A stretch of DNA of 64,000 bases from Anaerolineae bacterium. GTDB taxonomy: Bacteria; Chloroflexota; Anaerolineae; UBA1429. Shown here piece after piece: positions 2,881 to 61,176 of the stretch (position 1 is its first letter; every line of letters begins with the position of its first letter). Where the stretch lies: positions 1,312,001 to 1,376,000 of the forward strand of contig OY776562.1 in the NCBI GenBank assembly GCA_963675785.1. Reading direction: 5' to 3'. Made by a program: the position numbers and the translations under genes. The notes beneath the pieces were generated by a model. That model ran no database searches and was not told where the DNA came from. It saw only the letters and a program-made list of their open reading frames with translations.

Positions 2881-5151
2881 TTAGTCCAAGTTCAGCATGA
2901 CCTCGGTGGTACCAGCGGGCACCGCAACCCTGCTTCCGCCCACCGCCGTCACCGCCCAGGGGTAATCGGCCCTGTCCACCTTCACGTGGATGACCTGGCC
3001 GCTACGCAGCGCCGTCACCGTCTGGCTGGCCTGGCCCAGGTTGTCATAGGCCGTAAAGCTGACGCTGGCGCCGTCCGCCAACGCATAGAGGTGATAGTCG
3101 ATACCGTCGAGGTAGTTGTAATCGGCGTTATCGTCATGGCTGCCGTAGGGAATAATGCTATTGGGCCGGGCCAGCACCGGCAGTTCGAAATAGGTGCAAA
3201 CGTGCTCTTGCCAGCCGCCGCTGTAGGCCACCTCATCCAGAATGTTGATCCAGGTGCCTTGGGGTAGATAATAGCTGGCCAAGCTCTGGTCGTTAAAGAT
3301 AGGCGCCACCAACAGGCTGCCGCCCAGCATGTACTGACGATCCAGATAGCGGCAAGCGGGATCATCCTGGTATTCCAGCAGCATGGGTCGCAGCAGGGGC
3401 ACGCCCGTCTTGTGGGCCTCCACCGCACCCGCGAACAGGTAGGGCATCAGCCGGCATTTCAATTGGGTGAACTGGCGCAACACCTCGCTGGCCTCTTCAC
3501 CAAAAGCCCAGGGCACACGCTGGGTGCTGCTGCCGTGCAAGCGGCTGTGGGTCGAGAGCAGGCCAAAGGCCACCCAACGTTTGAACAGATCGGGCGTAGC
3601 CGTAGCCTCAAACCCGCCAATATCGTGGCTCCAAAAGGCAAACCCCGAGAGCGCCAACGACAGCCCACCACGCAGGTCCTCGGCCATCGATTCATAGGTA
3701 GCCGTACAATCGCCACCCCAGTGAATGGGAAAGCGCTGGCTGCCGGTGGTGGCACTGCGGGCAAACAGCACCGCCTGGCCCTCGCCTTTGTAGGTTTCCA
3801 GCAGCTCGAACACCACCTTGTTATAGAGGTAGGTGTAATAGTTGTGCATCATGGCGGGGTCCGAGCCATCGCACCAGACGATGCCCTTGACCGGGATGCG
3901 CTCGCCGAAATCGGTCTTGAAACAGTCCACGCCCATGTCCAGCAGGGCCCGCAATTTATCCTGATACCAGCGGCAGGCCGCCGGGTTGGTGAAATCCACC
4001 AGGCCCATGCCCGCCTGCCACAAATCCCACTGCCACACGTCGCCATTGGTGCGTTTGACCAGATAGCCGTTGGCCGCGCCCTCGTCGAACAGCGGCGAGA
4101 GTTGAGCAATATAAGGGTTAATCCAGACGCAATTCTTGAGCCCTTTGTCGTGGTTGCGCGCCAACATACCCACAGGATCGGGGAAAGTGCGCCCATCGAA
4201 CTCGAAATCACACCATTGGAACTCGCGCATCCAAAAGCAATCATAGTGGAACACCTGCAGGGGAATATCTCGCGCCTTCATGCCGTCGATCATGGCGCTG
4301 GTGGTGGTCTCGTCATAATTGGTGGTGAACGAGGTCGAGAGCCACAGGCCAAACGACCAGGCCGGGGGCAACGCGGGCTTGCCCGAGAGCGTGGTATAGC
4401 GGCTGAGCACATCCTTGAGTGCCGGGCCATCGATGATGTAATACTCTAGCTCTTCGTCGGGCACCGAGAATTGCACCTTGGAGACCACCTCCGAGCCCAC
4501 TTCAAAGCTCACATAGCCGCTGTGACCCACCAACACGCCATAGCCCCGGTCAGAAAGATAAAAGGGAATATTCTTGTAGGCCTGCGCCGTGCAGGTGCCG
4601 CCATCCTCCTGCCAAATGTCCACCACCTGACCGTTCTTCACATAGGGGGTAAAACGCTCTCCCATGCCGTACACATTCTCGCCCACGGCCAAATCCAGCA
4701 TCTCGCGCAGATAGTGGCCGCCGCCCTCTTGCTCGATATAGGCCAGGCTGCCATCGCGAGCGGAGGTCAGCAGTTTGTCACCGTGGTAAAAGCGAATGCC
4801 CCAGCCACCGGTCTTGTCCACTTTGGCTCGCAGCGCTCCGCTACGCAGCACAGCGTGAGTCTCGTCCTCACTAACGGTCACCTGTGGTGCTTCATCCTCC
4901 AACGCGAACATCGGCCTCTTGGCGGCGCTGCCCTTGTGATGCACGGCCTTGACGCAAATGACGCCCTCTAACGGCGAAGAGAGTTCCACCGTCAGCACCG
5001 GCAGATTGAGGGTATCGCCGCGATGCTGTATCACCTTGGTCGGGGCGATGACCGTCAACGTATCATCTGTCAGTCGCACATCGTAAGCTTGTGCTGCCTT
5101 GTGAAGGGTAAATCCTTCGGCCACTCGCCACATGCCGTTCAGAAACTTCAT
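2881..5151 (-). CDS. yicI: Alpha-xylosidase, GH31
   Basis: MKF.NG.W start, WSFGLWLSTSF, CFKTDFGERIP nucleophile motif, FWSHDIGGFE. Confidence 0.93.
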   Translation of the reverse strand: MKFLNGMWRVAEGFTLHKAAQAYDVRLTDDTLTVIAPTKVIQHRGDTLNLPVLTVELSSPLEGVICVKAVHHKGSAAKRPMFALEDEAPQVTVSEDETHAVLRSGALRAKVDKTGGWGIRFYHGDKLLTSARDGSLAYIEQEGGGHYLREMLDLAVGENVYGMGERFTPYVKNGQVVDIWQEDGGTCTAQAYKNIPFYLSDRGYGVLVGHSGYVSFEVGSEVVSKVQFSVPDEELEYYIIDGPALKDVLSRYTTLSGKPALPPAWSFGLWLSTSFTTNYDETTTSAMIDGMKARDIPLQVFHYDCFWMREFQWCDFEFDGRTFPDPVGMLARNHDKGLKNCVWINPYIAQLSPLFDEGAANGYLVKRTNGDVWQWDLWQAGMGLVDFTNPAACRWYQDKLRALLDMGVDCFKTDFGERIPVKGIVWCDGSDPAMMHNYYTYLYNKVVFELLETYKGEGQAVLFARSATTGSQRFPIHWGGDCTATYESMAEDLRGGLSLALSGFAFWSHDIGGFEATATPDLFKRWVAFGLLSTHSRLHGSSTQRVPWAFGEEASEVLRQFTQLKCRLMPYLFAGAVEAHKTGVPLLRPMLLEYQDDPACRYLDRQYMLGGSLLVAPIFNDQSLASYYLPQGTWINILDEVAYSGGWQEHVCTYFELPVLARPNSIIPYGSHDDNADYNYLDGIDYHLYALADGASVSFTAYDNLGQASQTVTALRSGQVIHVKVDRADYPWAVTAVGGSRVAVPAGTTEVMLNLD

Positions 5152-28055: not shown

Positions 28056-28117
28056 TTAATAAGCATTGAACTATCAAGAGGCAATGATACGACATCATGC
28101 GAATTGGAGGTGTTTGT

Positions 28118-28462
28118 GTGATACGCGATCAACTGGCCATCACGCTGCGTTCCCTAGGCGATCCCACCCGCCTGGCCATTGTGAATACCCTTATGCAGGG
28201 CACCCACTGCAACTGTGAGCTCTCGGACAAGCTGGGCCTTTCGGCCAGCCTCATCTCACACCACATGCGCGTGCTCACCGAGCTGGATCTGATCATCGCC
28301 GAACGCCAACCGCAAGATCGCCGCTGGATCTATTACCGCATCAACCCGTCCGCCGTCGCCGAGCTAACCGCTACATTGACAGCCCTGTTCGATCCCGCCC
28401 GCATCCAACCGCGCGATCCGCTTTGCTGCATCGATGGCTCGTCCTGTTCAAAAGGGGAATAG
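28118..28462 (+). CDS. arsR: Arsenical resistance operon repressor
   Basis: SLGDPTRLAI, HCNCEL, ISHHMRVL, RWIYY; GTG start after GGAGGT. Confidence 0.85.
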   Translation: MIRDQLAITLRSLGDPTRLAIVNTLMQGTHCNCELSDKLGLSASLISHHMRVLTELDLIIAERQPQDRRWIYYRINPSAVAELTATLTALFDPARIQPRDPLCCIDGSSCSKGE

Positions 28463-28465
28463 TGC

Positions 28466-29527
28466 ATGAAGACGTTTGAAAAGTACCTGGCCGTGTGGGT
28501 TGCCCTGTGTATGGGCCTGGGCATCCTGCTCTCGCAAACCGTACCCGGCCTTAGCGAGGCCATCGATTCCTGGCAGGTGCGTGGGATATCCGTCCCCATC
28601 GGCATCTGCCTCTTTTTGATGATGTATCCCGCCCTGCTCAACCTGCAGCTCAGCGAGCTGAAAAAGCTGCGCAGCAACCCCAAACCCATACTACTCTCGT
28701 TGATCTCTAACTGGATTGTGGCGCCGCTGGTGGCCGCTGGTCTGGCCTACCTGTTCCTCGATGACCAACAGCTCATCGTCGCCGTCATCCTGCTGGGTTC
28801 CAGCCCCTGCACGGCCATGGTGCTGGTGTGGGGCCGGCTGGCTGAGGGCAACCAGGAACAGAACGTGGTCAATACCAGCCTCAACACCCTGACCATCATG
28901 GTGCTCTATGTGCCCATCGTCTCGCTGCTCACTGGTATCCAGGGCATCCCCATCGATCGCATGATGCTGCTCATCTCGGCTGGCGTATTTATCGGCCTGC
29001 CGCTCATTGCCGGTATCCTCTCCAAGCGCATCATCTTGCGCACCCGCGGCCAAGAATGGTTCGAGAACACCTATCACCCCATCGTTGAAAAGGTATCCAT
29101 CGCCGCCCTGTTGACTACTTTGGTGGTGCTGTTCTCTCTCAACGGTCAAACCCTCATCGAGAACCCGGATGCCTTGCTCAAGGTCTCAGTGCCCCTGTTG
29201 CTGGGCTTTGTCATTGTGGTTGGCTACAATCTCATCATCACGCGGCTGGCCGGCTTGCATTATAAAGAGGCCATCACCACCGTGCTCATTGGTTCTTCCA
29301 GCCACTTTGAGATCGCCATTGCCACTGCCGTGGCCCTTTACGGCGTAGGATCTTATGCCGCCCTAGGCACCACCATGGGCCTCTTTTGGGAAGTGCCCAT
29401 CATGTTAGGGCTGGTCTCGCTGGGCAAAGCCCTAGGCCGCCGAGGCTATTGGGCCGCAGAACCGCAGCCACAACCCGTCATTACGCCAACGCAATCTTCT
29501 AGCAATTTGGAGAACGAACATGTCTGA
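28466..29527 (+). CDS. acr3: Acr3-family arsenite efflux transporter
   Basis: FEKYLAVWV, LMMYP, NW...P, PCTAMVLVW, SSHFEIAIATA, EVPIML. Confidence 0.92.
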   Translation: MKTFEKYLAVWVALCMGLGILLSQTVPGLSEAIDSWQVRGISVPIGICLFLMMYPALLNLQLSELKKLRSNPKPILLSLISNWIVAPLVAAGLAYLFLDDQQLIVAVILLGSSPCTAMVLVWGRLAEGNQEQNVVNTSLNTLTIMVLYVPIVSLLTGIQGIPIDRMMLLISAGVFIGLPLIAGILSKRIILRTRGQEWFENTYHPIVEKVSIAALLTTLVVLFSLNGQTLIENPDALLKVSVPLLLGFVIVVGYNLIITRLAGLHYKEAITTVLIGSSSHFEIAIATAVALYGVGSYAALGTTMGLFWEVPIMLGLVSLGKALGRRGYWAAEPQPQPVITPTQSSSNLENEHV

Positions 29528-29969
29528 TAAAACCAACGTACTCTTTCTTTGCACCGGTAATTCAGCCCGCAGCCAGATGGCCGAAGCCCTGCTGCGCCAC
29601 CTCGCCGGCGATCGTTACGAGGTCCGTAGTGCTGGCCTGGAACCCAAGGGCATCAATCCCTACGCCCGCGCCGTACTGGAAGAAAAAGGCCTCGATATCT
29701 CCGGCCAACGCTCCAAGCACCTCAGCGAATACATGGATCAAAACCTGGGCGGCTATCTCATCACCGTCTGCGGCAACGCCGACGAGCGCTGCCCTTACTA
29801 CCCCGGCCAGGGCACTCGCCTGCATTGGCCTTTCGATGATCCCGCCGCTTTCGAGGGCAGCGAAGAGGAAACCCTGGCCGTGTTCCGCGCTACCCGCGAC
29901 GCCCTTGAGGCCCGCATTCTCGCCTGGCTGGCAGAGCAAAAAGCTAGCAATAGTAGCGCGGCGGGTTGA
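29520..29969 (+). CDS. arsC: Thioredoxin-coupled arsenate reductase (LMW-PTP fold)
   Basis: LFLCTGNSARSQMAE, ITVC..A.E.CP, HWPFDDP. Confidence 0.92.
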   Translation: MSDKTNVLFLCTGNSARSQMAEALLRHLAGDRYEVRSAGLEPKGINPYARAVLEEKGLDISGQRSKHLSEYMDQNLGGYLITVCGNADERCPYYPGQGTRLHWPFDDPAAFEGSEEETLAVFRATRDALEARILAWLAEQKASNSSAAG

Positions 29970-30069
29970 AACCCGTCGCTGAGGCACAAGTAAAAGCAGT
30001 GCAGGCTTAAACCTGCACTGCTTTTCGAACTCGCTCTGCCTCTCAGCGTGGGGTTTTCAACCCCACGCT
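29953..30069. repeat. REP/REPIN-like composite hairpin element, copy 1
   Basis: GTAG foot + GCGGCGGG-ttgaaa-CCCGTCGC; AAAAGCAGTGCAGG..CCTGCACTGCTTTT; AGCGTGGGGTT..AACCCCACGCT. Confidence 0.85.
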
Positions 30070-30099
30070 TCTATAGAAAACCCAATTCCTCAATAGCAC

Positions 30100-30501
30100 T
30101 CACCCAATCTCATAGATAGGCTTAGCCTCTCGGCGCGCATGGATTACCCGCTGATTTCGCACGTACTGAACAACCCGTTCCAAACAAGAATCGCATACAG
30201 TCTTGATGCCATATGATCGTTGCCAACGAAATATCCCATCAAGGCCACATTGCGTGTTTATATACCGTGAACTGTTGCCCTTGATGTTTTTGATAAGCGT
30301 AGGGATGTAAACACGTGGAAGTATGGAAACGACGAGATGAACATGGTCATCACAGCCCCCTAAAGCGTGAGGAATCGTCTGAGCAGCCTCAATCTGTTCA
30401 CGCATAATGGCAAATACATCCCTCGCGATGCCCGACACAAGAACCGGTTCGCGATGTTGAACCGTCCAAACAATATGGTAATGCGTGCGCCATTGCCCCA
30501 T
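30100..30501 (-). mobile_element. tnpA: IS200/IS605-family Y1 (HUH) transposase, REP-associated type
   Basis: HYHIVW, DHVH (HUH), KGNSS, F.WQRSY, YVRNQ..H catalytic Tyr; no tnpB; flanked by REP elements. Confidence 0.88.
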
Positions 30502-45256: not shown

Positions 45257-45832
45257 TCACTCATTTTCATCTACATCGAGCTCGTCATTCGGGATTTCTT
45301 TGGACTCTTCTTCTGCTGGCTCACTATCATTATAAGAGGGCTCGATCAGCAATCCGGGCACTTCGGAGCAATTGATAAAAGCATTCGCAGCCACAATCAT
45401 TTCCCAGGCGGTGCCTTCGTCCGGCCCGATGACGGTAACGGCTTTGTTTCGTGACTGCACTCGTTCGACCACAGCGACGAAATCCGAATCACCGGTTACC
45501 AACACCAAGCGATCAAAGATATCATCGCGGGCTGCTTCGGCGATATCCATGGCCATAATCATGTCGATATCGCTCTTGTAGACACCGATGCTGCGTTCAT
45601 GACTGTTTCGCACAACAATGCGGTCAAACCCCAGAAACTTTAGTTTTACTAAAAAACCGCTCCACCTATCGATATAGGTGGGGCGTGCGACATAAATCCA
45701 GGCACCAACCGGTGTACCATATGCCGCGACCAGACTGATAAGTGCTTCATAATCAATATAACGGCTGACATTGCGGGCACAACGGTATACGTTTTCGGAA
45801 TCGATGGCTAGCAGTACACGTTCTTGAGTCAT
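45257..45832 (-). CDS. NYN/LabA (PIN-like) domain protein
   Basis: IDSEN, KSDID..MAMD, LVTGDSDF..VV. Confidence 0.88.
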   Translation of the reverse strand: MTQERVLLAIDSENVYRCARNVSRYIDYEALISLVAAYGTPVGAWIYVARPTYIDRWSGFLVKLKFLGFDRIVVRNSHERSIGVYKSDIDMIMAMDIAEAARDDIFDRLVLVTGDSDFVAVVERVQSRNKAVTVIGPDEGTAWEMIVAANAFINCSEVPGLLIEPSYNDSEPAEEESKEIPNDELDVDENE

Positions 45833-45866
45833 TTAGAACCTTTCCTGGTGGTGTGACGAGCAGAAA

Positions 45867-46658
45867 TCAGCATGGTTCTGCGGCATAGTGCAACAGATGT
45901 TTGCAAAAAATCGGTACGGTATATTCGGCGGATCCTTGTAGCAGGGCGTAAGGTTGACAGGGATAATACCCCTCACCACGAGTTAAGGGTGTGCTCTCCA
46001 GGTTAAACTCGACGATTAGGGCACCCTGTTCATGCGCCCTGGCTGGCAGGTCAGAGGCGGGATAAACATTGGCAGACGTGCCGATGACCAGCATTAAACC
46101 GCAGGCATCCACTGCCTGATGAATCTCTTCCATACAGCGCACGTCTTCGCCAAAGAGCACCATATTGGGTTTGAGTGGATAGTTGCACTTGGGACAGGCG
46201 GGAGCACTTGGCACTGGAAGCAGATATTCGGCTGTAAAAGGGCCAGTGTAGCCGCATTTGAGGCATTGTACGCTGCGGTGGTCGCCGTGTATTTCCAACA
46301 CTCGAAGGCTGCCAGCAATCTGGTGCAGTCCATCCACATTCTGGGTGATGATGGTGGTGGATAAGCCAGCATTTTGCAATTCGGCCAGAGCCAGGTGGGC
46401 AGCGTTGGGGTGCTTATCTCGCAGGTTTTGGGCCAATGCGCGAAACATTTCCCAGCAGAGACTGGGTGAGCGGTAAAAGGTGTCGATGCTGGCATATAGG
46501 TCGGGGTCGAAAACAGACCAGAGACCATCCTTGCTGCGAAAGTCTGGAATGCCGCTTTCCACCGAGATGCCGGCGCCTGTAAGAATGACGATGGGGCCCA
46601 TGTGCAAGTGTAGGGCAGCCAATTGAGCAAGCTCGACTAGCTCAGTAGGTTCATTCAT
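45867..46658 (-). CDS. cobB: NAD-dependent protein deacylase (sirtuin)
   Basis: TGAGISVESGIPDFR, ITQNVDGLH, HG, two CxxC, GTS..VYPA. Confidence 0.9.
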   Translation of the reverse strand: MNEPTELVELAQLAALHLHMGPIVILTGAGISVESGIPDFRSKDGLWSVFDPDLYASIDTFYRSPSLCWEMFRALAQNLRDKHPNAAHLALAELQNAGLSTTIITQNVDGLHQIAGSLRVLEIHGDHRSVQCLKCGYTGPFTAEYLLPVPSAPACPKCNYPLKPNMVLFGEDVRCMEEIHQAVDACGLMLVIGTSANVYPASDLPARAHEQGALIVEFNLESTPLTRGEGYYPCQPYALLQGSAEYTVPIFCKHLLHYAAEPC

Positions 46659-46737
46659 CTGAGGATCACTATATGAAATAATCAACGGGCACATTGTTCG
46701 GCCTTTTATCCTGGATGTCGCAGTGTGCGATAAATGA

Positions 46738-54731: not shown

Positions 54732-54980
54732 TTATACCTCGACTGGCTCGTCCAGGGTAACCATGGCTCCAAGAATCCGCTCCATGGCCATGACATGGCT
54801 GCATACACCGCGTTGCTCAAAGAACCCGCAGCTGCAATGCCACTTGCCGCCCTCATAGGTCACCTGATGGGTCGAGTTATCGCCCTCAAACTGCACCGAA
54901 AAGGTCTCAAAAGAGACTCGACCCGGTTCCTGGGCGTAACGCCGCGCCTTTTGGATCTTGCTAATCATCCCTGAATCCAT
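54732..54980 (-). CDS. Small SWIM zinc-finger protein
   Basis: WHCSC.FF...GVCSH; RBS AAGGAGG. Confidence 0.82.
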   Translation of the reverse strand: MDSGMISKIQKARRYAQEPGRVSFETFSVQFEGDNSTHQVTYEGGKWHCSCGFFEQRGVCSHVMAMERILGAMVTLDEPVEV

Positions 54981-55000
54981 CACAGCACCCTCCTTAATAG

Positions 55001-55121
55001 CAAAAAGGCACCAGGGCTCGTGTCCCTGGTGCCTTACAATGCCGTATCCTGTTTGAGAAGAATCATATCGTGTGCCCCCCTTCACTATCCTGATTATAAA
55101 TAGGCAAAGTGGGCCTGTCAA
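55001..55121 (-). promoter_or_regulatory. Consensus promoter, 10-codon leader ORF and terminator upstream of the SWIM gene
   Basis: TTGACA-17 nt-TATAAT (55121-55093); ORF MILLKQDTAL* 55066-55034; hairpin AAGGCACCAGGG..CCCTGGTGCCTT-TTT. Confidence 0.65.
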
Positions 55122-55143
55122 CAAGCGCTGCGTGTAATTCTCG

Positions 55144-55239
55144 TTAAGCCGCGAATTGCAGCAAACCCACCCCCAACAGGGCAACGGCAGCTAGTAATAC
55201 GGCGGCTACAGGCAGGCTGATCATACGGATGTGGTTCAT
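55144..55239 (-). CDS. 31-aa hydrophobic small peptide
   Basis: RBS GGAGAG; MNHIRMISLPVAAVLLAAVALLGVGLLQFAA*. Confidence 0.5.
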   Translation of the reverse strand: MNHIRMISLPVAAVLLAAVALLGVGLLQFAA

Positions 55240-55352: not shown

Positions 55353-55380
55353 TTGACGAAGGACAGAGCGGCAGTATAAT
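55353..55380 (+). promoter_or_regulatory. Sigma70 promoter of the four-gene NurA-HerA operon
   Basis: TTGACG-16 nt-TATAAT. Confidence 0.65.
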
Positions 55381-55442
55381 GGGTTTGTCTCACGTTTGTC
55401 ATCATCAACCTTTTCCCTCGAATCTATACTGTGGAGGTCTCG

Positions 55443-56531
55443 GTGCCGCCAAGGATTCTCGAGATACTTGGTTCCATATCTTCAGACACGATTCGTGTAC
55501 TTCCTTGTGAACGCCTGAATCTGGACCGAATCGAAGGACTTGTCGACTACTCCGAGCTCGAGTCCATCAACAAGCCGAATCAGCCTTTCGAAGTTGATGT
55601 CCGCACTGACTGGACGGGCGACCTCCATAGCGTTCCCATTCCTTCGCCCTCTCTGCTGCGCTACTTCATGGACGGTTCGAGGCGTACGTACCGGATCGCC
55701 GACATCATTGTGAAGGATCATTACTACCCACTGATCGCCGGCCAGGTGGGAGTGGCTGTCGTCGAGCGAGAGCCAATGAGCGGGAGGCTGCATCCCCTGC
55801 GCCAGTACTGCTCATCCCAGACCGTGCTAGCCATACCGCCATGCTTCACCGAGAGTGACTCCAAGCAGCTTCAGGCGGAAATCGAGCGAAAATCGCCGTA
55901 TCCTGTCGAAGTGCTCCGATATAAAGCCGAAACAGACAAGGACCCCGTCGACTTGGGAGTTGCCCGCATCATGCGTGAGATGGCCGCCAATGAGGTTGAG
56001 ACAGTCATACGCATGTTTTCTGATCAAGCTCTGGGTAACGGCCGCATGCTCGTGGTTGACGGACCACTTCGCTTTGGTCAGTCGTTCGATGTGACTCAAT
56101 TTCGCAACGTCATTGGCGTTAGCAAGACCTTCTTGCCCAGTCTCAAACTCGGCAAAGGCAGGGGACGCCAAGATGTAGGAGCGGTCACGTCGCAACTCGG
56201 CCAAGCTCATAGGACTTGTGTTTACAAGTCGCCCCACGACGATCGGGTGATGGGTGTTTGGTACGTACGCCTCCGCAGCCCCAGCAACCTGACCGGCCCG
56301 CTGCAAGGCCTGATCAAGGTGGAGATATTCGCTTGCGACCAACAGGAACGTGAATATGGGTTCAGCCCTGCGCGCATCGATACGCTCTCTCGCTGTCTCT
56401 ACGAGCACAGAAACGTGACCCCTTTTGGCAGCGATTGGCGCTGGGCGAGCCACCTCTACCCTGTCTTTGCTGCAGAAAGCTATGTCAAGTCCAGGTTCGT
56501 CAGTGACGTCGTGTTCAAAGCCATGTTCTGA
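55443..56531 (+). CDS. NurA-like (RNase H fold) nuclease
   Basis: YFMDGSRR, E, LVVDGPL acidic motifs, IGVSK, HLYPV..AE; GTG start after GGAGGT. Confidence 0.78.
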   Translation: MPPRILEILGSISSDTIRVLPCERLNLDRIEGLVDYSELESINKPNQPFEVDVRTDWTGDLHSVPIPSPSLLRYFMDGSRRTYRIADIIVKDHYYPLIAGQVGVAVVEREPMSGRLHPLRQYCSSQTVLAIPPCFTESDSKQLQAEIERKSPYPVEVLRYKAETDKDPVDLGVARIMREMAANEVETVIRMFSDQALGNGRMLVVDGPLRFGQSFDVTQFRNVIGVSKTFLPSLKLGKGRGRQDVGAVTSQLGQAHRTCVYKSPHDDRVMGVWYVRLRSPSNLTGPLQGLIKVEIFACDQQEREYGFSPARIDTLSRCLYEHRNVTPFGSDWRWASHLYPVFAAESYVKSRFVSDVVFKAMF

Positions 56532-56539
56532 GGTGAAAG

Positions 56540-58195
56540 ATGACAAACCGATGCATTGGTCGTGTGACAGCCACAGAGAATGCCCCAACCAGCTGCGATT
56601 CGCTGCAATTCTGGGTCGACGCTGATGTCATACTCAAACCCTTCGACATTGTTCGTGTAGAGCAAAGAGGACGGGACCCGTCCGAGACAAGCCACACCTA
56701 TGCCATCGTGACCGGCCTGTCCTACATCACGGACAGCGCAAGCCATCTGGCAAACTATGTATCCGCAGACTTTGGAGATGTGAGCCAACATGCCGTGAAC
56801 AAGCGCATGGGCACGGCGATCGCTTTCGCGGACGTGCTCTACAACAACGCCGAGATCGAGATGCCCGTTGTCGATGGTGCCGCTGTCGAATGGGCCGACG
56901 AAGAAGGAATCCGCGAAGCCCTCGGCATCAACAGCTACAGATACCCCATTCCCGCCGGCTATATAAGAACCTCAAATGGCATCGAAGTCCCCGTGGATTT
57001 GGAGGCGGACTATCTGCTTGGCCCAGAAGGAGCCCATCTCAACATCGCAGGGATATCTGGACTGGCTACTAAGACTTCGTACGCCATGTTCCTCCTCAGC
57101 TCAGTCCAGCAACGGCGGGCCGACCAGGTATCTATGATCATCTTCAACGTCAAGGGGCAAGACCTCCTTGCAATCAATGAGCCAAACGACGATCTGACAG
57201 AAGCCCAGCGGCTGGATTGGACACGGTGCGGACTCGACCCAGTGCCGTTCCGAGATGTGCGGTTCCTGTACCCATATAGTCGTAGCGCTACGCAGAACCA
57301 CACAACATCCCACGTTTCGCGAACGACCCTCGAACGACAGAAAGATCAGGGGATAGCACGTAACTACTACTATGATGTGCAGACGGCAATTCCAAAGCTT
57401 TCCTACTTGTTCGCAGACGTGGATGACTCGACTTCGACAATGCAATCAATTGCTGCCGAGATTGCGGAGTGGGAAGATATATCGGAATGGTCAGAATTAT
57501 TTACGAAGGTTGCAAATCGTACTAAATCCGGATCAGGACAAGATAAATCGATTGCAATTGCCTCTTGGAGGAAATTCAACAGAATATTGACAGCACGCTC
57601 TAAAAGCGATCTATTCTGTGAAAAAAGCATAATAAATCAAAAAGAGGAACGACAGGAGACAATCGAGGATGCTGTCAGCTCACTCCGTGGGGGACAGGTT
57701 CTGGTCATTGATATCGAACCGCTTCCTGACCACCTGCAACGCCTGGTCTTTGGAGACGTCATCAAGACCATCTATGGTATCAAGCTGAATGAGCGCGATG
57801 ACGTGTTACCTGATGATTTGGGTCACGTCATCATCTTTGCCGATGAATTGAACAAATACGCACCCGGTACCTCAGGCGCCAACACTAGTTCTCTGACTGC
57901 CAATATTCTCGAGGTTACCGAGCGTGGAAGGTCCCTTGGCACCGTGCTTTTCGGCGCAGAGCAATTTCGCACCGGAGTCCACGATAGAGTCCTGGGTAAC
58001 TGCAGCACAAATGTGTACGGAAGAACCAGTCCAGTCGAGATCGCCAAGTGCCCAGACTACAAGTACTTCCCCAACACCTACAAGAATGCGGTCACGCGCT
58101 TGCCAAAGGGCACCCTCTTGCTGCAGCACGCGCTGTTCCGCGCAGCACTCATCAAAGTTAGCTTCCCCTTCCCATGCTACTATCAGCCAAAGTAA
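56540..58195 (+). CDS. HerA-like (FtsK/HerA) ATPase
   Basis: N-terminal HAS barrel; HLNIAGISGLATKTS Walker A variant, IFNVKG.D, IFADELNKYAP Walker B, ERGRSLG..LFGAEQ. Confidence 0.85.
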   Translation: MTNRCIGRVTATENAPTSCDSLQFWVDADVILKPFDIVRVEQRGRDPSETSHTYAIVTGLSYITDSASHLANYVSADFGDVSQHAVNKRMGTAIAFADVLYNNAEIEMPVVDGAAVEWADEEGIREALGINSYRYPIPAGYIRTSNGIEVPVDLEADYLLGPEGAHLNIAGISGLATKTSYAMFLLSSVQQRRADQVSMIIFNVKGQDLLAINEPNDDLTEAQRLDWTRCGLDPVPFRDVRFLYPYSRSATQNHTTSHVSRTTLERQKDQGIARNYYYDVQTAIPKLSYLFADVDDSTSTMQSIAAEIAEWEDISEWSELFTKVANRTKSGSGQDKSIAIASWRKFNRILTARSKSDLFCEKSIINQKEERQETIEDAVSSLRGGQVLVIDIEPLPDHLQRLVFGDVIKTIYGIKLNERDDVLPDDLGHVIIFADELNKYAPGTSGANTSSLTANILEVTERGRSLGTVLFGAEQFRTGVHDRVLGNCSTNVYGRTSPVEIAKCPDYKYFPNTYKNAVTRLPKGTLLLQHALFRAALIKVSFPFPCYYQPK

Positions 58196-58210
58196 GAGGA
58201 CAAAGCGAGC

Positions 58211-59788
58211 ATGCAAGAATCAGAAGTCAGGATTGGCGCCTATTTGCTTGAGATCATCACCACTGGCATGTATACCAACCCGCTCGACACAGTCCGAGAA
58301 TACATCCAGAACAGCACAGACTCACTGCTGGAGGCCGTGCGTGAGGGGAAGGTTGACCGCGACAAGGCCCGCATAAGGGTTGCGTTCGACCCGCGAAGCC
58401 GCAACCTTTCCGTGCGAGATGAAGGTATGGGAATACCTGCCGATGAGGTAAGTGCCCGTCTGGTAAGTGTCGGAATATCCAATAAGAAGATCGGGGTTGA
58501 CGCCGGCTTTCGAGGCATTGGCCGCCTGGCTGGAACGGCGTTCTGCCGCAAGCTCATGTATGAGACCAGTGCCATCGGTGAGGACATCATATCTCGAGTG
58601 GAATTCGACTGCGAGGGTATGCGGCAGGCGGTTGCGAGGCGAGATGCGAGTCAGGCTGAGCTAGCCTCCGTGATAGCCAGCAACACAATGGTCTTTCAGG
58701 ATTCCACCAGTCTGCGAAACGAGCACTATTGTACAGTGCAAATGGTCGATATCGGTGATGATCATGGGGTGTTTCTTGACCGCAAGGCTTTGACCGACTA
58801 CCTTAGAGAGGTGGCTCCGGTGGCGTTTGACCAGCAATGGTTCTGTTACGCACCGAGAATTGTCGAGTGGACTTGCGAGCAAGGCATTGACCTTCCTGAA
58901 GTGACACTCGTCCTCGAAGAAACTGGCGGCAACAGCGTGCAGATATTCAAGCCCTACAGCACCCTGGAAACAAGTCGCAGCATGCGTGATGGGAATCACG
59001 AGATGCACATCACCGGCGTAGAGTTCTTGCAGGACTCCGGGCCACAGCCGAGGTACTGGGGATGGATAGGCAAGAGCAAGCTCGAAGGTCAGATTGGCAA
59101 CAACCTGACTCGTGGACTCCGTTTTCGTATGCACAACATCTCCATCGGTGAAGAAGCCGTAAGCAACCGATTCTTCAGGGAATGCAATGTAGCTTCGCGC
59201 TTCAATGGCTATTTTGTCGGAGAGATCCATATAATCGATGACCGCGTGCTGCCGAACGCAAGGAGGGATTGGTTCGAAAACAACCCGACCTGGCAGGCCA
59301 TAAGCAATGATCTAGGACGACAAGTCAAGCAGCTCGAAAAACGTGTGAGAGTCGTCTCTACAGAGAGAAACTCAAAGCCGGCCAAGGCGGCGGCGCGCGC
59401 AGCGCGCCTTATCACAAAATACAAGGATACCTCTCAAGAGAGCTCTTCCGCTCCGCCGCATGTCATCACACACGCCGAAGCTAGACAGGCAATGGAGGAT
59501 ATCGGTGACAGCATCCGCGGCATCGATGATTCCAGACCAGTTCCCGGGAAGAGCTATGCCGGCTACAGCCCAGACCAACTCCGGGAGCAACTGGAGTACC
59601 TAAGGTCGCAGATAGGGTCCCAGACCAACGGGACAGTGGCCCTGGCGTCTTGGCTTGACAAGAAGCAGCGCAAAGTTATCACCACACTGCTTGACACACT
59701 TCATTCAAGACTTGATGCTGAACCATATCGAATTGCCAAGGAAACCGTGCTTGAGCTCTACGGTCCTAACGCCAGAAAGAATCAATGA
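58211..59788 (+). CDS. GHKL (Hsp90/MORC-like) ATPase
   Basis: G.Y.N....REYIQNS.D (N box), RDEGMGI (G1), GFRGIGRLA (G2), GEIH...PNARRD.F. Confidence 0.85.
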   Translation: MQESEVRIGAYLLEIITTGMYTNPLDTVREYIQNSTDSLLEAVREGKVDRDKARIRVAFDPRSRNLSVRDEGMGIPADEVSARLVSVGISNKKIGVDAGFRGIGRLAGTAFCRKLMYETSAIGEDIISRVEFDCEGMRQAVARRDASQAELASVIASNTMVFQDSTSLRNEHYCTVQMVDIGDDHGVFLDRKALTDYLREVAPVAFDQQWFCYAPRIVEWTCEQGIDLPEVTLVLEETGGNSVQIFKPYSTLETSRSMRDGNHEMHITGVEFLQDSGPQPRYWGWIGKSKLEGQIGNNLTRGLRFRMHNISIGEEAVSNRFFRECNVASRFNGYFVGEIHIIDDRVLPNARRDWFENNPTWQAISNDLGRQVKQLEKRVRVVSTERNSKPAKAAARAARLITKYKDTSQESSSAPPHVITHAEARQAMEDIGDSIRGIDDSRPVPGKSYAGYSPDQLREQLEYLRSQIGSQTNGTVALASWLDKKQRKVITTLLDTLHSRLDAEPYRIAKETVLELYGPNARKNQ

Positions 59789-61176
59789 ACGTACTGATAG
59801 TCGAACCTTCCTACCGATCCAAATACCCCCCTCTTGGCCTAATGAGAATCTCCGCGTGCCACAAGGCACGCGGAGATTGTGTTACCTTCATTCGAGGAAA
59901 GATGCCTGAGATGCGCGTGCCCCAGCGATGGCATCGCATTTATGTGGGGTCCCTTTTCACGTATGAATTGCCTCGTACAGTAGACACTGTCAACTACTAT
60001 GCAGATTGTGTGCCTTCTCCGGGTGATCTTTGGGTGGGTGGCATAGGGGCAACGCTGCTCCCAGAGTATGTAAAAGAACGCGTTCCAGATGGGGTCCATG
60101 TCTTTGAAGGTCCCCTTGATAGGTCCAACATGCTGGGTCTCGGAGAGCCTCCCGTTGCAGAGTGCATTCCCGACTATGCCATGATTGACTCTGTGGAGTA
60201 TGGCTATCGGCCCAGGGATTCGTACTTTATTCGCGTCTCCATCGGGTGCATTCGCAAGTGCCAATTCTGCGCTGTGCGTCTTCTCGAACCGACTTTTGGC
60301 TACCTGCAGAGTGTCCGAGACCAGCTCGATGCCATTGACTCTCAACACGGTGAGCGCCAAAACCTCGTCATCATGGATAACAACATCCTGGCCCTAGAAA
60401 ACCTCGATCTTGTAATCGCCGAAATTCGCGATGAGGGCTTTGCACGAGGTTCAAAGAGAGGCGGGAAGCTAAGGACCGTCGATTGCAACCAGGGCATTGA
60501 TGCCAGGCTCATCAATGAACATATAGCAGAACAACTGTACTCTATTGCGCTTAAGCCAGTCCGGTTGGCTTTCGATAATCTGTCCGTCGAAAAGGACTAC
60601 AGGCGCGCTGTCGCACTGATGGCCAACGCAGGCTTTAAGCAATTTACCACCTATACCATGTTCAACTACAAAGACGACCCGGCAAGCTTCTATCGCCGCC
60701 TCCAGATCGGCCACGAGCTTGGACAAGAGCATGGCGTCAAGATAACGAGCTTCCCGATGCGGTTCATTCCTATCGATGATGTGAACCGACACTATATCTC
60801 GCCGAACTGGAGCTATCGCTGGCTCCGAGGAATCCAGTGTATTCTCCAGGCAACACATGGCATCGTAAGTCCTAGCGTGCCGTTCTTTGAGCGGGCCTTC
60901 GGAGCAACTCTGGATGAATTCTTGGAGATAACGGCCATGCCTGACGACTATATCATCTACCGTGCCAAGAATGAGACGGAAGGTGCTGCCGAATGGCGTA
61001 GTCTCTATCGGAGACTCGCTCCCTCCGAGCGTCGAGCGTTCTTGTCTTGCCTGCAAGATCTCCATGCCAGCGGCGGGGCCAAACGTGCGACAGAGTATCC
61101 AGAGTTCCTGGATCTCCTCGTCCACTACTACCCGGAGATCAGAGAGGGCGTGACAATGCCTCTGCGCCCCGTCTAG
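59785..61176 (+). CDS. Radical SAM protein with N-terminal B12-binding-like domain
   Basis: YPPLGLM.IS, SLFT, VGGI.ATL; GCIRKCQFC (CxxxCxxC), MDNN, NQGIDARL, RLAFD; ATGA overlap with the GHKL gene. Confidence 0.85.
   Translation: MNVLIVEPSYRSKYPPLGLMRISACHKARGDCVTFIRGKMPEMRVPQRWHRIYVGSLFTYELPRTVDTVNYYADCVPSPGDLWVGGIGATLLPEYVKERVPDGVHVFEGPLDRSNMLGLGEPPVAECIPDYAMIDSVEYGYRPRDSYFIRVSIGCIRKCQFCAVRLLEPTFGYLQSVRDQLDAIDSQHGERQNLVIMDNNILALENLDLVIAEIRDEGFARGSKRGGKLRTVDCNQGIDARLINEHIAEQLYSIALKPVRLAFDNLSVEKDYRRAVALMANAGFKQFTTYTMFNYKDDPASFYRRLQIGHELGQEHGVKITSFPMRFIPIDDVNRHYISPNWSYRWLRGIQCILQATHGIVSPSVPFFERAFGATLDEFLEITAMPDDYIIYRAKNETEGAAEWRSLYRRLAPSERRAFLSCLQDLHASGGAKRATEYPEFLDLLVHYYPEIREGVTMPLRPV

Follow-up and report, generated by a model that had tools for sequence, protein, structure and literature searches.

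A four-gene operon in a 64,000-nucleotide stretch of an Anaerolineae bacterium genome (contig OY776562.1, positions 1,312,001 to 1,376,000; hereafter the window) consists of two separable modules, A-B and C-D, rather than being one fixed four-gene system. As judged by profile comparison, the A-B module pairs a NurA-type nuclease with a HerA-type ATPase; the C-D module pairs a GHKL ATPase with a radical S-adenosylmethionine (SAM) enzyme. We see about an even chance that the operon is a mobile, restriction-modification-like conflict system of these two modules, in which D would mark self DNA and A-B would degrade DNA that is unmarked. Its features are listed below by their positions in the window (nt, nucleotides; aa, amino acids).

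55353..55380, + strand: candidate sigma-70-like promoter, TTGACG, 16 nt spacer, TATAAT (11/12 matches)
55431..56531, + strand: gene A, predicted NurA-type nuclease, 366 aa from GTG
56540..58195, + strand: gene B, predicted HerA/FtsK-type P-loop ATPase, 551 aa
58211..59788, + strand: gene C, Hsp90-like GHKL ATPase with transducer domain and helical C-terminus, 525 aa
59785..61176, + strand: gene D, radical SAM enzyme with a cobalamin-binding-like N-terminal Rossmann domain and a family-specific C-terminal domain, 463 aa

The separability of the modules is evident from the partners of A-B across the phylum. In an evenly sampled set of 401 genomes of the phylum, D is present in 4 and B-type HerA in 26; neighbourhoods were analyzed in 24 of the latter, leaving out G125 (a 69-aa fragment) and G101 (a 2-kb contig). 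The high-scoring A-B clade was defined by scores against the window profiles of at least 580 bits for B (or a split B, as in G412) and at least 200 bits for A. Members of this clade stand with C-D in G000 and in G171, a genome of the same phylum that has A-B-C-D in the same order; in G091, G042, G214 and G412 their partner is an Eco57I/MmeI-like N6 methylase or Type IIG gene. A more distant A-B pair in G318 lies with a DruA/Mom-family gene, and Type IIG or methylase genes also adjoin A-B relatives at locus L245. Low-scoring HerAs (217-311 bits) are found with Mre11 and/or Rad50 at 14 loci in 14 genomes, including a second locus in G091. The neighbourhood in G099 is ambiguous, and those in G338, G153 and G431 are uninformative short contigs.

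Viral contigs provide the second line of evidence. Searching IMG/VR from B alone yielded 19 loci, at 15 of which A-B-C-D occur in the same order, A being directly upstream of B in all 15. The search from D had already yielded five of these 15 contigs, and several of the 15 are near-identical versions of a single Mu-like element. The remaining four comprise one Type IIG-A-B locus followed by a 411-aa open reading frame (ORF), two loci that end within or just after B, and one with B and a fragment of C without D. Recurrence at 15 of the 19 viral-contig loci and in G171 makes the arrangement more than chance. The four-gene combination singled out by the initial annotation of this DNA, which had been made from the sequence alone, therefore does co-occur elsewhere, although not as one fixed system. 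Its distribution is patchy rather than that of a core, vertically inherited operon, a possibility that the same annotation had raised: in addition to the rarity of D in the phylum sample, B was found among 41 genomes in G000 and as one weak match.

By the logic of substitution, these comparisons support the view that C-D occupies the slot of a DNA-modification enzyme beside A-B, because the nearest A-B operons carry a methylase, Type IIG or Mom-like gene there. In the window itself, Pfam scans found no Mre11/Rad50 gene within or beside the operon and no methyltransferase domain in the operon proteins, in agreement with the earlier claim that both a Mre11/Rad50 pair and a classical methyltransferase are missing from it.

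The D module has its own, much wider set of associations. At E<=0.001 the D family comprises 1569 proteins, which their source names place in several phyla. From 521 confirmed metagenome loci we collected the best 80, and from 503 viral-contig loci likewise the best 80; D profile scores divide the family proper (at least 297 bits) from shorter viral relatives (at most 230 bits), and 88 unique D loci were kept after removing four with identical D proteins (L010, L011, L070, L077). Their cassettes contain two ParB-family genes around an SNF2 helicase (21 of the 88 loci), NurA-HerA (12), DrmA/DrmB with a NERD-helicase (9), PbeA/PbeC (9), DpdB/DGQHR-like genes (6), C only (5), C with an unknown protein of about 300 aa, u25 (4), a BglII-like nuclease (4, three of them also with PbeA) or nothing recognised (18, many on short contigs). 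Among the unrecognised loci are some that contain a DpnII system together with methylases and a Mob gene, and others with a GHKL gene, a DndB-MBL-Mrr-SNF2 set or an integrase. D joins at least eight cassette types besides NurA-HerA and, often with C directly adjoining, stands at the end of many restriction-like cassettes, PIN-like ones included; their carriers are prophage-like contigs, plasmids and also chromosomes. PADLOC models identify several of these partners with high significance (DrmA, E 9e-171; DrmB, 1e-52; PbeA, 2e-246; PbeC, 2e-175). No methylase domain was found by Pfam in the recurrent clusters of D cassettes, save a Type IIG gene in two loci. On a quick maximum-likelihood tree computed from 83 D proteins, loci of different cassette type intermingle, and the NurA-HerA label changes at least seven times across well-supported branches. 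Of the 88 loci, 36 carry a C-family gene, which in 30 of those 36 directly adjoins D on the same strand.

Two further observations concern these loci. Cluster u25 (L012, L014, L015, L019, L041, L049; about 300-370 aa) adjoins C-family genes, shows partial, below-cut-off matches to the NCBIfam model NF047698 'PP_RS20740 family' (best E 3.7e-14) and may be a nuclease partner of C at those loci. At L077/L089 (10001-12606) a D-family gene is followed by a second, distinct radical SAM gene (411 aa, PF04055 E 6.7e-13), both within a co-oriented array of 12 genes that includes a helix-turn-helix (HTH) protein.

Mobile elements carry the cassette repeatedly. Among the viral contigs, A-B-C-D adjoins integrase, repressor and endolysin genes at L093, lies between portal/protease/endolysin genes and terminase/Mu-type transposition genes at L094, and adjoins small terminase and primase genes at L106; at L105, C-D adjoins CI-like repressor and RecT/exonuclease genes. 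D-family genes also occur on 12 plasmid records (at least 80% coverage), all from Alphaproteobacteria, carriers including Novosphingobium aromaticivorans pNL1 and plasmids of Rhizobium, Mesorhizobium and Agrobacterium. The two plasmids examined, pNL1 and one from Agrobacterium, share a set of PIN-like, GHKL, DGQHR and radical SAM genes, then GHKL and a long DGQHR protein. At L186 (pNL1, NC_009426.1 114946-125348) and L187 a second C-family GHKL protein, adjoining the DGQHR, radical SAM and GHKL genes, is paired with a 'PIN-like domain' protein of 560-650 aa; by analogy with NurA-HerA, this may be a nuclease-GHKL effector pair.

In the collection of annotated phage records we found only distant relatives of D (at most 35% identity, below 80% coverage). 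Shorter radical SAM proteins (about 290-430 aa, at most 230 bits against the D profile; L090-L164) are common on IMG/VR contigs, with 25-33% identity to the N-terminal two thirds of D. For some of them the adjoining genes are constant, coding for proteins of about 200 aa and about 560 aa that match no family, and the annotated phages LoVEphage, phiCT453B and Marinitoga camini virus 1 carry such shorter genes.

The assignment of A and B to the NurA and HerA types, also proposed in the initial annotation, was reached through profiles of homologues. Protein A has no Pfam match even at E<=10, including the NurA model PF09376, and none in NCBIfam or PADLOC. Its profile (11 homologues) nevertheless matches the solved NurA chain 7f6d_H with E 9.2e-5, the aligned positions being 164-312. 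Among Atlas clusters the nearest bears the name 'putative NurA domain-containing protein' (score 0.97), and PF09376 is found on 11% of members in one of the three nearest Atlas clusters. Residues D81 (in the motif YFxDGS), E188, D210 and H341 are invariant in the homologue alignment and make up a putative acidic/His catalytic set. For protein B the match is much stronger: its profile (12 homologues) finds the solved HerA chain 7f6d_B with E 8.6e-88 (298 bits), other HerA chains being weaker (8xau_A, E 2.7e-9; 4d2i_A, E 3.6e-3), and the window protein alone matches 7f6d_B with 2e-33, the two having in common the P-loop GISG(L/V)ATKTSYA and the Walker B motif DELNKYAP. K178 (Walker A) and D435 and E436 (Walker B) are invariant. 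No Pfam or NCBIfam model matches B above cut-off, and PADLOC HerA models reach only E of about 5e-3. B would presumably form a hexameric ring that translocates double-stranded DNA (dsDNA).

Structure 7f6d, which we take to be the NurA-HerA complex of Deinococcus radiodurans, is the best solved relative of both A and B and has the same unusual P-loop. Unlike the window clade, its HerA belongs by score (298 bits) within the Mre11-Rad50-linked range and far below the 580 bits that delimit the high-scoring A-B pairs. No GHKL or radical SAM partner is described for the NurA-HerA repair complex in the accessible part of the report (PMC9960219).

Gene D encodes a protein belonging to the radical SAM superfamily. 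The cysteine triad (CxxxCxxC; C155, C159, C162) is invariant in 28 sequences, although nothing in Pfam, NCBIfam or PADLOC scores above cut-off; the Pfam Radical_SAM model PF04055 falls short with E 0.022 and is precomputed on 27 of 120 D homologues among the matches listed. The structural model (predicted local distance difference test score, pLDDT, 90.2) has a Rossmann-like N-domain, a radical SAM barrel and a family-specific C-terminal domain. The best structural matches (VIA Z) are AprD4 (18.5) and MgmA (18.0), followed by MiaB, RimO and TsrM (about 15), OxsB (14) and TokK (13), and the N-domain alone (residues 1-120) matches cobalamin-binding domains with Z of 8.7-10.6. Foldseek lists spore photoproduct lyase among the matches (E 9.6e-4), and against viral structures it finds weak matches to B12-type radical SAM enzymes (best E 7e-8, TM 0.42).

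The earlier designation of D as a B12 radical SAM enzyme therefore stands with respect to the cysteine triad and the cobalamin-type two-domain fold, but is uncertain with respect to B12 use: the B12-binding model PF02310 does not match the window protein, and the top structural match is AprD4, which is not known to bind cobalamin. PF02310 is precomputed on 2 of the 120 homologues among the matches listed, and some homologues are named 'cobalamin-binding domain-containing protein' by NCBI. D possibly uses cobalamin, as far as likeness of the N-domain at the level of fold can indicate. CobS and CbiB have no match in the genome, which holds four other B12-binding-domain matches; this suggests that cobalamin is taken up rather than made. 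Several specific identities were considered and rejected: a viperin-like enzyme (neither sequence nor fold match), the QueE/Dpd pathway (QueC/D/TGT genes absent nearby) and classical Dnd/Ssp (DndA/C/E genes absent nearby).

Protein C is the only operon product recognised by Pfam (PF13589, E 3.2e-7, above cut-off), which bears out the GHKL half of its former label, GHKL/MORC ATPase. The MORC half is less certain: in the model (pLDDT 84.8), which combines a GHKL and a transducer domain with a helical tail, C is structurally nearer Hsp90 than MORC, with VIA Z of 23-24 for Hsp90/TRAP1/HtpG, 20.7 for SMCHD1 and 18.5-19.8 for MORC2/3/4. The best partial NCBIfam matches are likewise HSP90 family protein (8.6e-9) and HtpG; the single match in PADLOC, to the REase_II model, is weak (9.4e-3). 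The GHKL motifs (N-box, G1 and G2) are conserved: all 28 sequences compared keep E30, N34, D70, G74 and GFRGxG, as well as R352. Prokaryotic MORC/paraMORC and Hsp90-like GHL ATPases, which combine a GHKL with a transducer domain, are described as being encoded next to genes for helicases, nucleases and modification enzymes (Iyer et al. 2008; Kaur et al. 2020; both cited in bioRxiv 10.64898/2026.09.30.754977), and those of conflict systems are proposed to be DNA clamps or sensors in restriction-modification-like defence (bioRxiv 10.64898/2026.09.30.754977). Unlike the conflict-system MORCs, C is nearer Hsp90, has no PADLOC model match beyond the weak one above, and has a fixed radical SAM neighbour, which is not mentioned in the accessible text of that preprint.

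Taken as a conflict system, the operon could work as follows. A-B would be the degrading arm, a NurA-type nuclease on a HerA-type hexameric dsDNA translocase, its clade apparently being that of the Thermus TdtA/NurA operon and not the Mre11-Rad50 repair clade. C-D would be the discrimination arm. D, via a 5'-deoxyadenosyl radical and possibly with cobalamin, would put a non-canonical mark on host DNA, and C would be an ATP-driven clamp that brings D to DNA, comparable to DndD for DndC and DpdB for DpdA; in other cassettes a ParB-type or DndD-like NTPase would serve as D's loader instead of C. A-B would thread and cut incoming DNA that lacks the mark. Three points here are inferred: action of D on DNA, binding between C and D, and blocking of A-B by the mark. 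Marking of self DNA by D is the simplest reading because C-D replaces modifiers and accompanies DISARM and Pbe arms, which rely on a DNA mark in the systems already known. The same division of labour, D making a self mark and NurA-HerA destroying, had been put forward in the initial annotation. It now appears to have strong comparative support, by analogy with the methylase or Mom-like gene found in the C-D slot; this support is comparative rather than drawn from chemistry or a phage phenotype. The system is possibly one of modification-dependent restriction with new chemistry. More specifically, D might write a previously unseen radical-derived DNA mark (for example, C-methyl or other carbon-linked) used as a self label by many restriction arms (NurA-HerA, DISARM-like DrmAB, Pbe-like, ParB-SNF2, DGQHR-linked, PIN-like and BglII-like), a proposal that we regard as doubtful and put forward tentatively.

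A precedent for D acting on DNA is gp53 of phage M6, since this radical SAM enzyme, a glycinyl-thymine isomerase, acts on bases within DNA (PMC8989533); it has been called the first radical SAM enzyme involved in installing a DNA modification, and no other DNA-modifying enzyme of this type is named in that paper (PMC8989533). Unlike D, gp53 is related to spore photoproduct lyase, lacks the cobalamin-type N-domain and works on a pre-installed hypermodification in a phage pathway, and its family and partners are different. If the reading of D as a self-marking enzyme is true, a radical SAM enzyme would install a self-protective DNA modification in cells, common to many restriction architectures. 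Prokaryotic immunity would gain a new modification chemistry besides methylation, phosphorothioation and 7-deazaguanine, D being loaded by an Hsp90-like GHKL clamp, a ParB-type protein or a DndD-like ATPase. A bacterial NurA-HerA clade usually filed under repair would be recast as the destroying arm of restriction-modification-like systems. The reading would also be relevant to the question of how the Thermus tdtA operon comes to promote DNA donation. With its many members, some in cultured, tractable bacteria, the D family makes the idea directly testable.

The initial annotation did not recognise the combination as a named system, nor does PADLOC-DB v2.0.0, where A and D have no match, B reaches HerA models at about 5e-3 and C the REase_II model at 9.4e-3. 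For the A-B half a characterised relative does exist: the tdtA operon of ICEth1 in Thermus thermophilus HB27. According to the accessible text of the report, this operon encodes the Type IIG enzyme Tth111II (1106 aa), the NurA-like TTC1878 (377 aa), TdtA and the N4/N6 methylase TTC1880 (410 aa) and is needed for DNA donation in transjugation (PMC5365140). As in tdtA, a NurA-like nuclease gene lies directly upstream of a HerA-family ATPase gene in the window, without Mre11/Rad50; unlike tdtA, the window operon has neither a Type IIG gene nor a methylase, and C and D follow downstream instead. Loci L208, L209 and L245, sisters of the window A-B, resemble tdtA by architecture, with the order Type IIG-NurA-HerA(-methylase) and similar protein sizes (1170, 381, 569 and 405 aa at L209).

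Some of these relatives have features of their own. At L209 (G214:C13) an IS200-type transposase (PF01797) lies at 4261-5001 between the Type IIG and NurA genes of the tdtA-like operon, and the HerA gene of G412 is broken into two ORFs (337 and 240 aa). Both cases point to decay or turnover of these cassettes. Downstream of the NurA-HerA-methylase cassette at L207 (G091:C412:13000-27000), the region 1-2369 holds a gene for a 477-aa B12-binding-domain protein (PF02310, E 4.7e-8) and then an ORF, cut by the end of the stretch, whose score with the D profile is 34 bits; this is a further radical SAM partner of B12 type.

The TdpABC phosphorothioate system, reportedly the subject of work by An et al. 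(Nat Chem Biol 2025), is said to rely on tdpC for protection of self DNA from the translocase and nuclease TdpAB. This logic is the one proposed here. Unlike D, the modification enzyme of TdpABC produces phosphorothioate and is not known to be of the radical SAM type. At E<=1 the PDB matches of the B profile include no chain named TdpA. Genes of DISARM (DrmA, DrmB) and of DndCDEA-PbeABCD (PbeA, PbeC) occur in D-linked cassettes, whereas the window operon holds none of the genes of these systems. In their known settings these genes rely on methylation or phosphorothioation: DISARM includes a methylase, and Dnd-Pbe is listed as a phosphorothioate-based restriction-modification system. In the D-linked Drm/Pbe cassettes, the recurrent clusters held no gene recognisable as a methylase or as Dnd. 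Ophion (radical SAM, PHP and phosphoribosyltransferase (PRTase)) and, judging by its listing, HXS are different systems. The literature searched holds no description of the D family, of its four-gene combination or of its cassette links, bioRxiv supplements being beyond reach. A preprint on YprA-helicases describes uncharacterised DISARM-like classes without radical SAM in its main text, and its supplements might list such a class.

Several observations count against a DNA-marking conflict system. The best structural matches of D act on protein (MgmA), sugar (AprD4) and tRNA (MiaB), not on DNA. C is not a required companion of D: it was unseen in the fetched stretch of 52 of the 88 D loci, many of them on short contigs. 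The one relative of A-B that has been characterised, in Thermus, acts in DNA donation, not defence, as far as the accessible text goes. The C-D slot may be one of site recognition or nicking rather than modification, because Type IIG partners are nucleases as well as methylases. Finally, the setting of the window copy gives no indication of mobility: no flanking direct repeats, integrase or tRNA were found (a scan of the whole window found no tRNA), the neighbours are not defence genes, the GC content of the operon (0.538, versus 0.536 for the genome) carries no compositional sign of recent transfer, and its tetranucleotide deviation is ordinary, 12% of genome windows being equally deviant. 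Across the 25 other genomes searched, nothing matched the aldo-keto reductase gene that adjoins the operon at more than 48% identity, so the flanks were untraceable in relatives.

Of the alternatives, the one that survives best, which we nevertheless consider improbable, is a TdtA-type DNA-transfer module, in which A-B would process donor DNA and pump it out of the cell, or process DNA for a phage or element, and C-D would stand in for the Type IIG enzyme in opening or marking start sites. The requirement of the ICEth1 operon for DNA donation (PMC5365140) speaks for it, as do carriage of the cassette on mobile elements and L209, whose operon has the architecture of tdtA with matching sizes and whose A-B belongs to the window's clade. 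However, the other partners of D (DrmA/DrmB, PbeA/PbeC and DpdB-like, BglII-like and PIN-like nucleases) are of restriction type, and integrase, relaxase and element borders are absent in the window. The accessible text of the Thermus study reports tests of donation rather than defence, and the phenotype may be a by-product of DNA cutting.

It is also quite unlikely, in our estimate, that D makes a small molecule (a modified or chain-terminating nucleotide, or a signal), with C sensing infection and A-B as a separate effector. The fold of D does resemble that of OxsB (Z 14), which acts on deoxyadenosine phosphates, and viperins are radical SAM enzymes with antiviral small-molecule products; Ophion is likewise described as a radical SAM system with such a product. 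Yet D accompanies DNA-clamp-type NTPases (GHKL, ParB, DndD-like PbeC) and helicase-nuclease cassettes that are mark-dependent in known systems, and neither a nucleotide kinase nor a phosphatase nor a PRTase is recurrent beside it.

We assign a similarly low probability to action of D on foreign DNA, whether by using radical chemistry to recognise, remove or damage phage bases, modified or not, or as a direct DNA-damaging effector, with C-D feeding A-B with ends. That radical SAM enzymes can act on DNA lesions is illustrated by the spore photoproduct lyase match (PMC8989533), and loading of NurA-HerA is reported for the archaeal and Deinococcus complexes to need DNA ends or nicks. Replacement of a methylase or Mom-like gene by C-D fits a modifying role better than a damaging one, though, and an unregulated radical DNA-damaging enzyme would be toxic, while no immunity gene was seen.

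Post-translational modification by D of a protein of the system (C, A or B), with infection sensed without a DNA mark, appears very unlikely. MgmA, a cobalamin radical SAM enzyme of glutamine methylation, is one of the two best structural matches (Z 18.0), and C is the commonest direct neighbour of D (30 loci); against this, D has no universal partner, C being unseen at more than half of its loci and the others varying by cassette. Because no single partner protein is common to all contexts, the substrate of D is more likely DNA or a nucleotide. Housekeeping DNA repair, that is, NurA-HerA end resection with an accessory radical SAM repair enzyme, deserves hardly any credence: a bacterial NurA-HerA complex examined as an end-resection machine (PMC9960219) is the nearest relative of A and B with a solved structure, but the Mre11/Rad50-linked HerAs form a group separate from the window clade, which pairs with methylases, D is in just 4 of the 401 phylum genomes, and the cassette occurs on prophage-like contigs and plasmids.

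The layout of the operon in the window agrees with what the initial annotation had described. The four genes are co-oriented, with gaps of 8 nt between A and B (56532-56539) and 15 nt between B and C (58196-58210) and an ATGA overlap of C and D at 59785-59788, and the genes on either side are of housekeeping type, with those for amine oxidase, ACP synthase and a SWIM protein upstream and those for aldo-keto reductase and amidohydrolase downstream. The single promoter that had been placed in front of them was only partly sustained. The TTGACG-16-TATAAT site is present, but the region has three promoter-like sites versus 4.0 expected from shuffles, so that the match alone is not above chance and the site is a candidate only. 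For gene A, the GTG at 55443 (362 aa) is more likely the true start than that at 55431, because GGAGG at 55433-55437 precedes it by 5 nt and the N-termini of homologues agree. The SWIM zinc finger protein (PF04434, E 6.4e-6; 150 aa) is encoded at 54732-55184 (- strand), divergent from the operon promoter region.

Elsewhere in the window, adjacent genes for an NYN-domain protein (191 aa) and a SIR2-family protein (275 aa) lie at 45257-46694 (- strand), about 9 kb upstream of the operon; the pair could be an ordinary deacetylase or a small conflict module. An arsenic-resistance-like trio (ArsR-type regulator, SBF/ACR3-like transporter and low-molecular-weight phosphatase) is found in the region 28097-30501, where it is followed by an IS200-type transposase gene at 30100-30501 (- strand).

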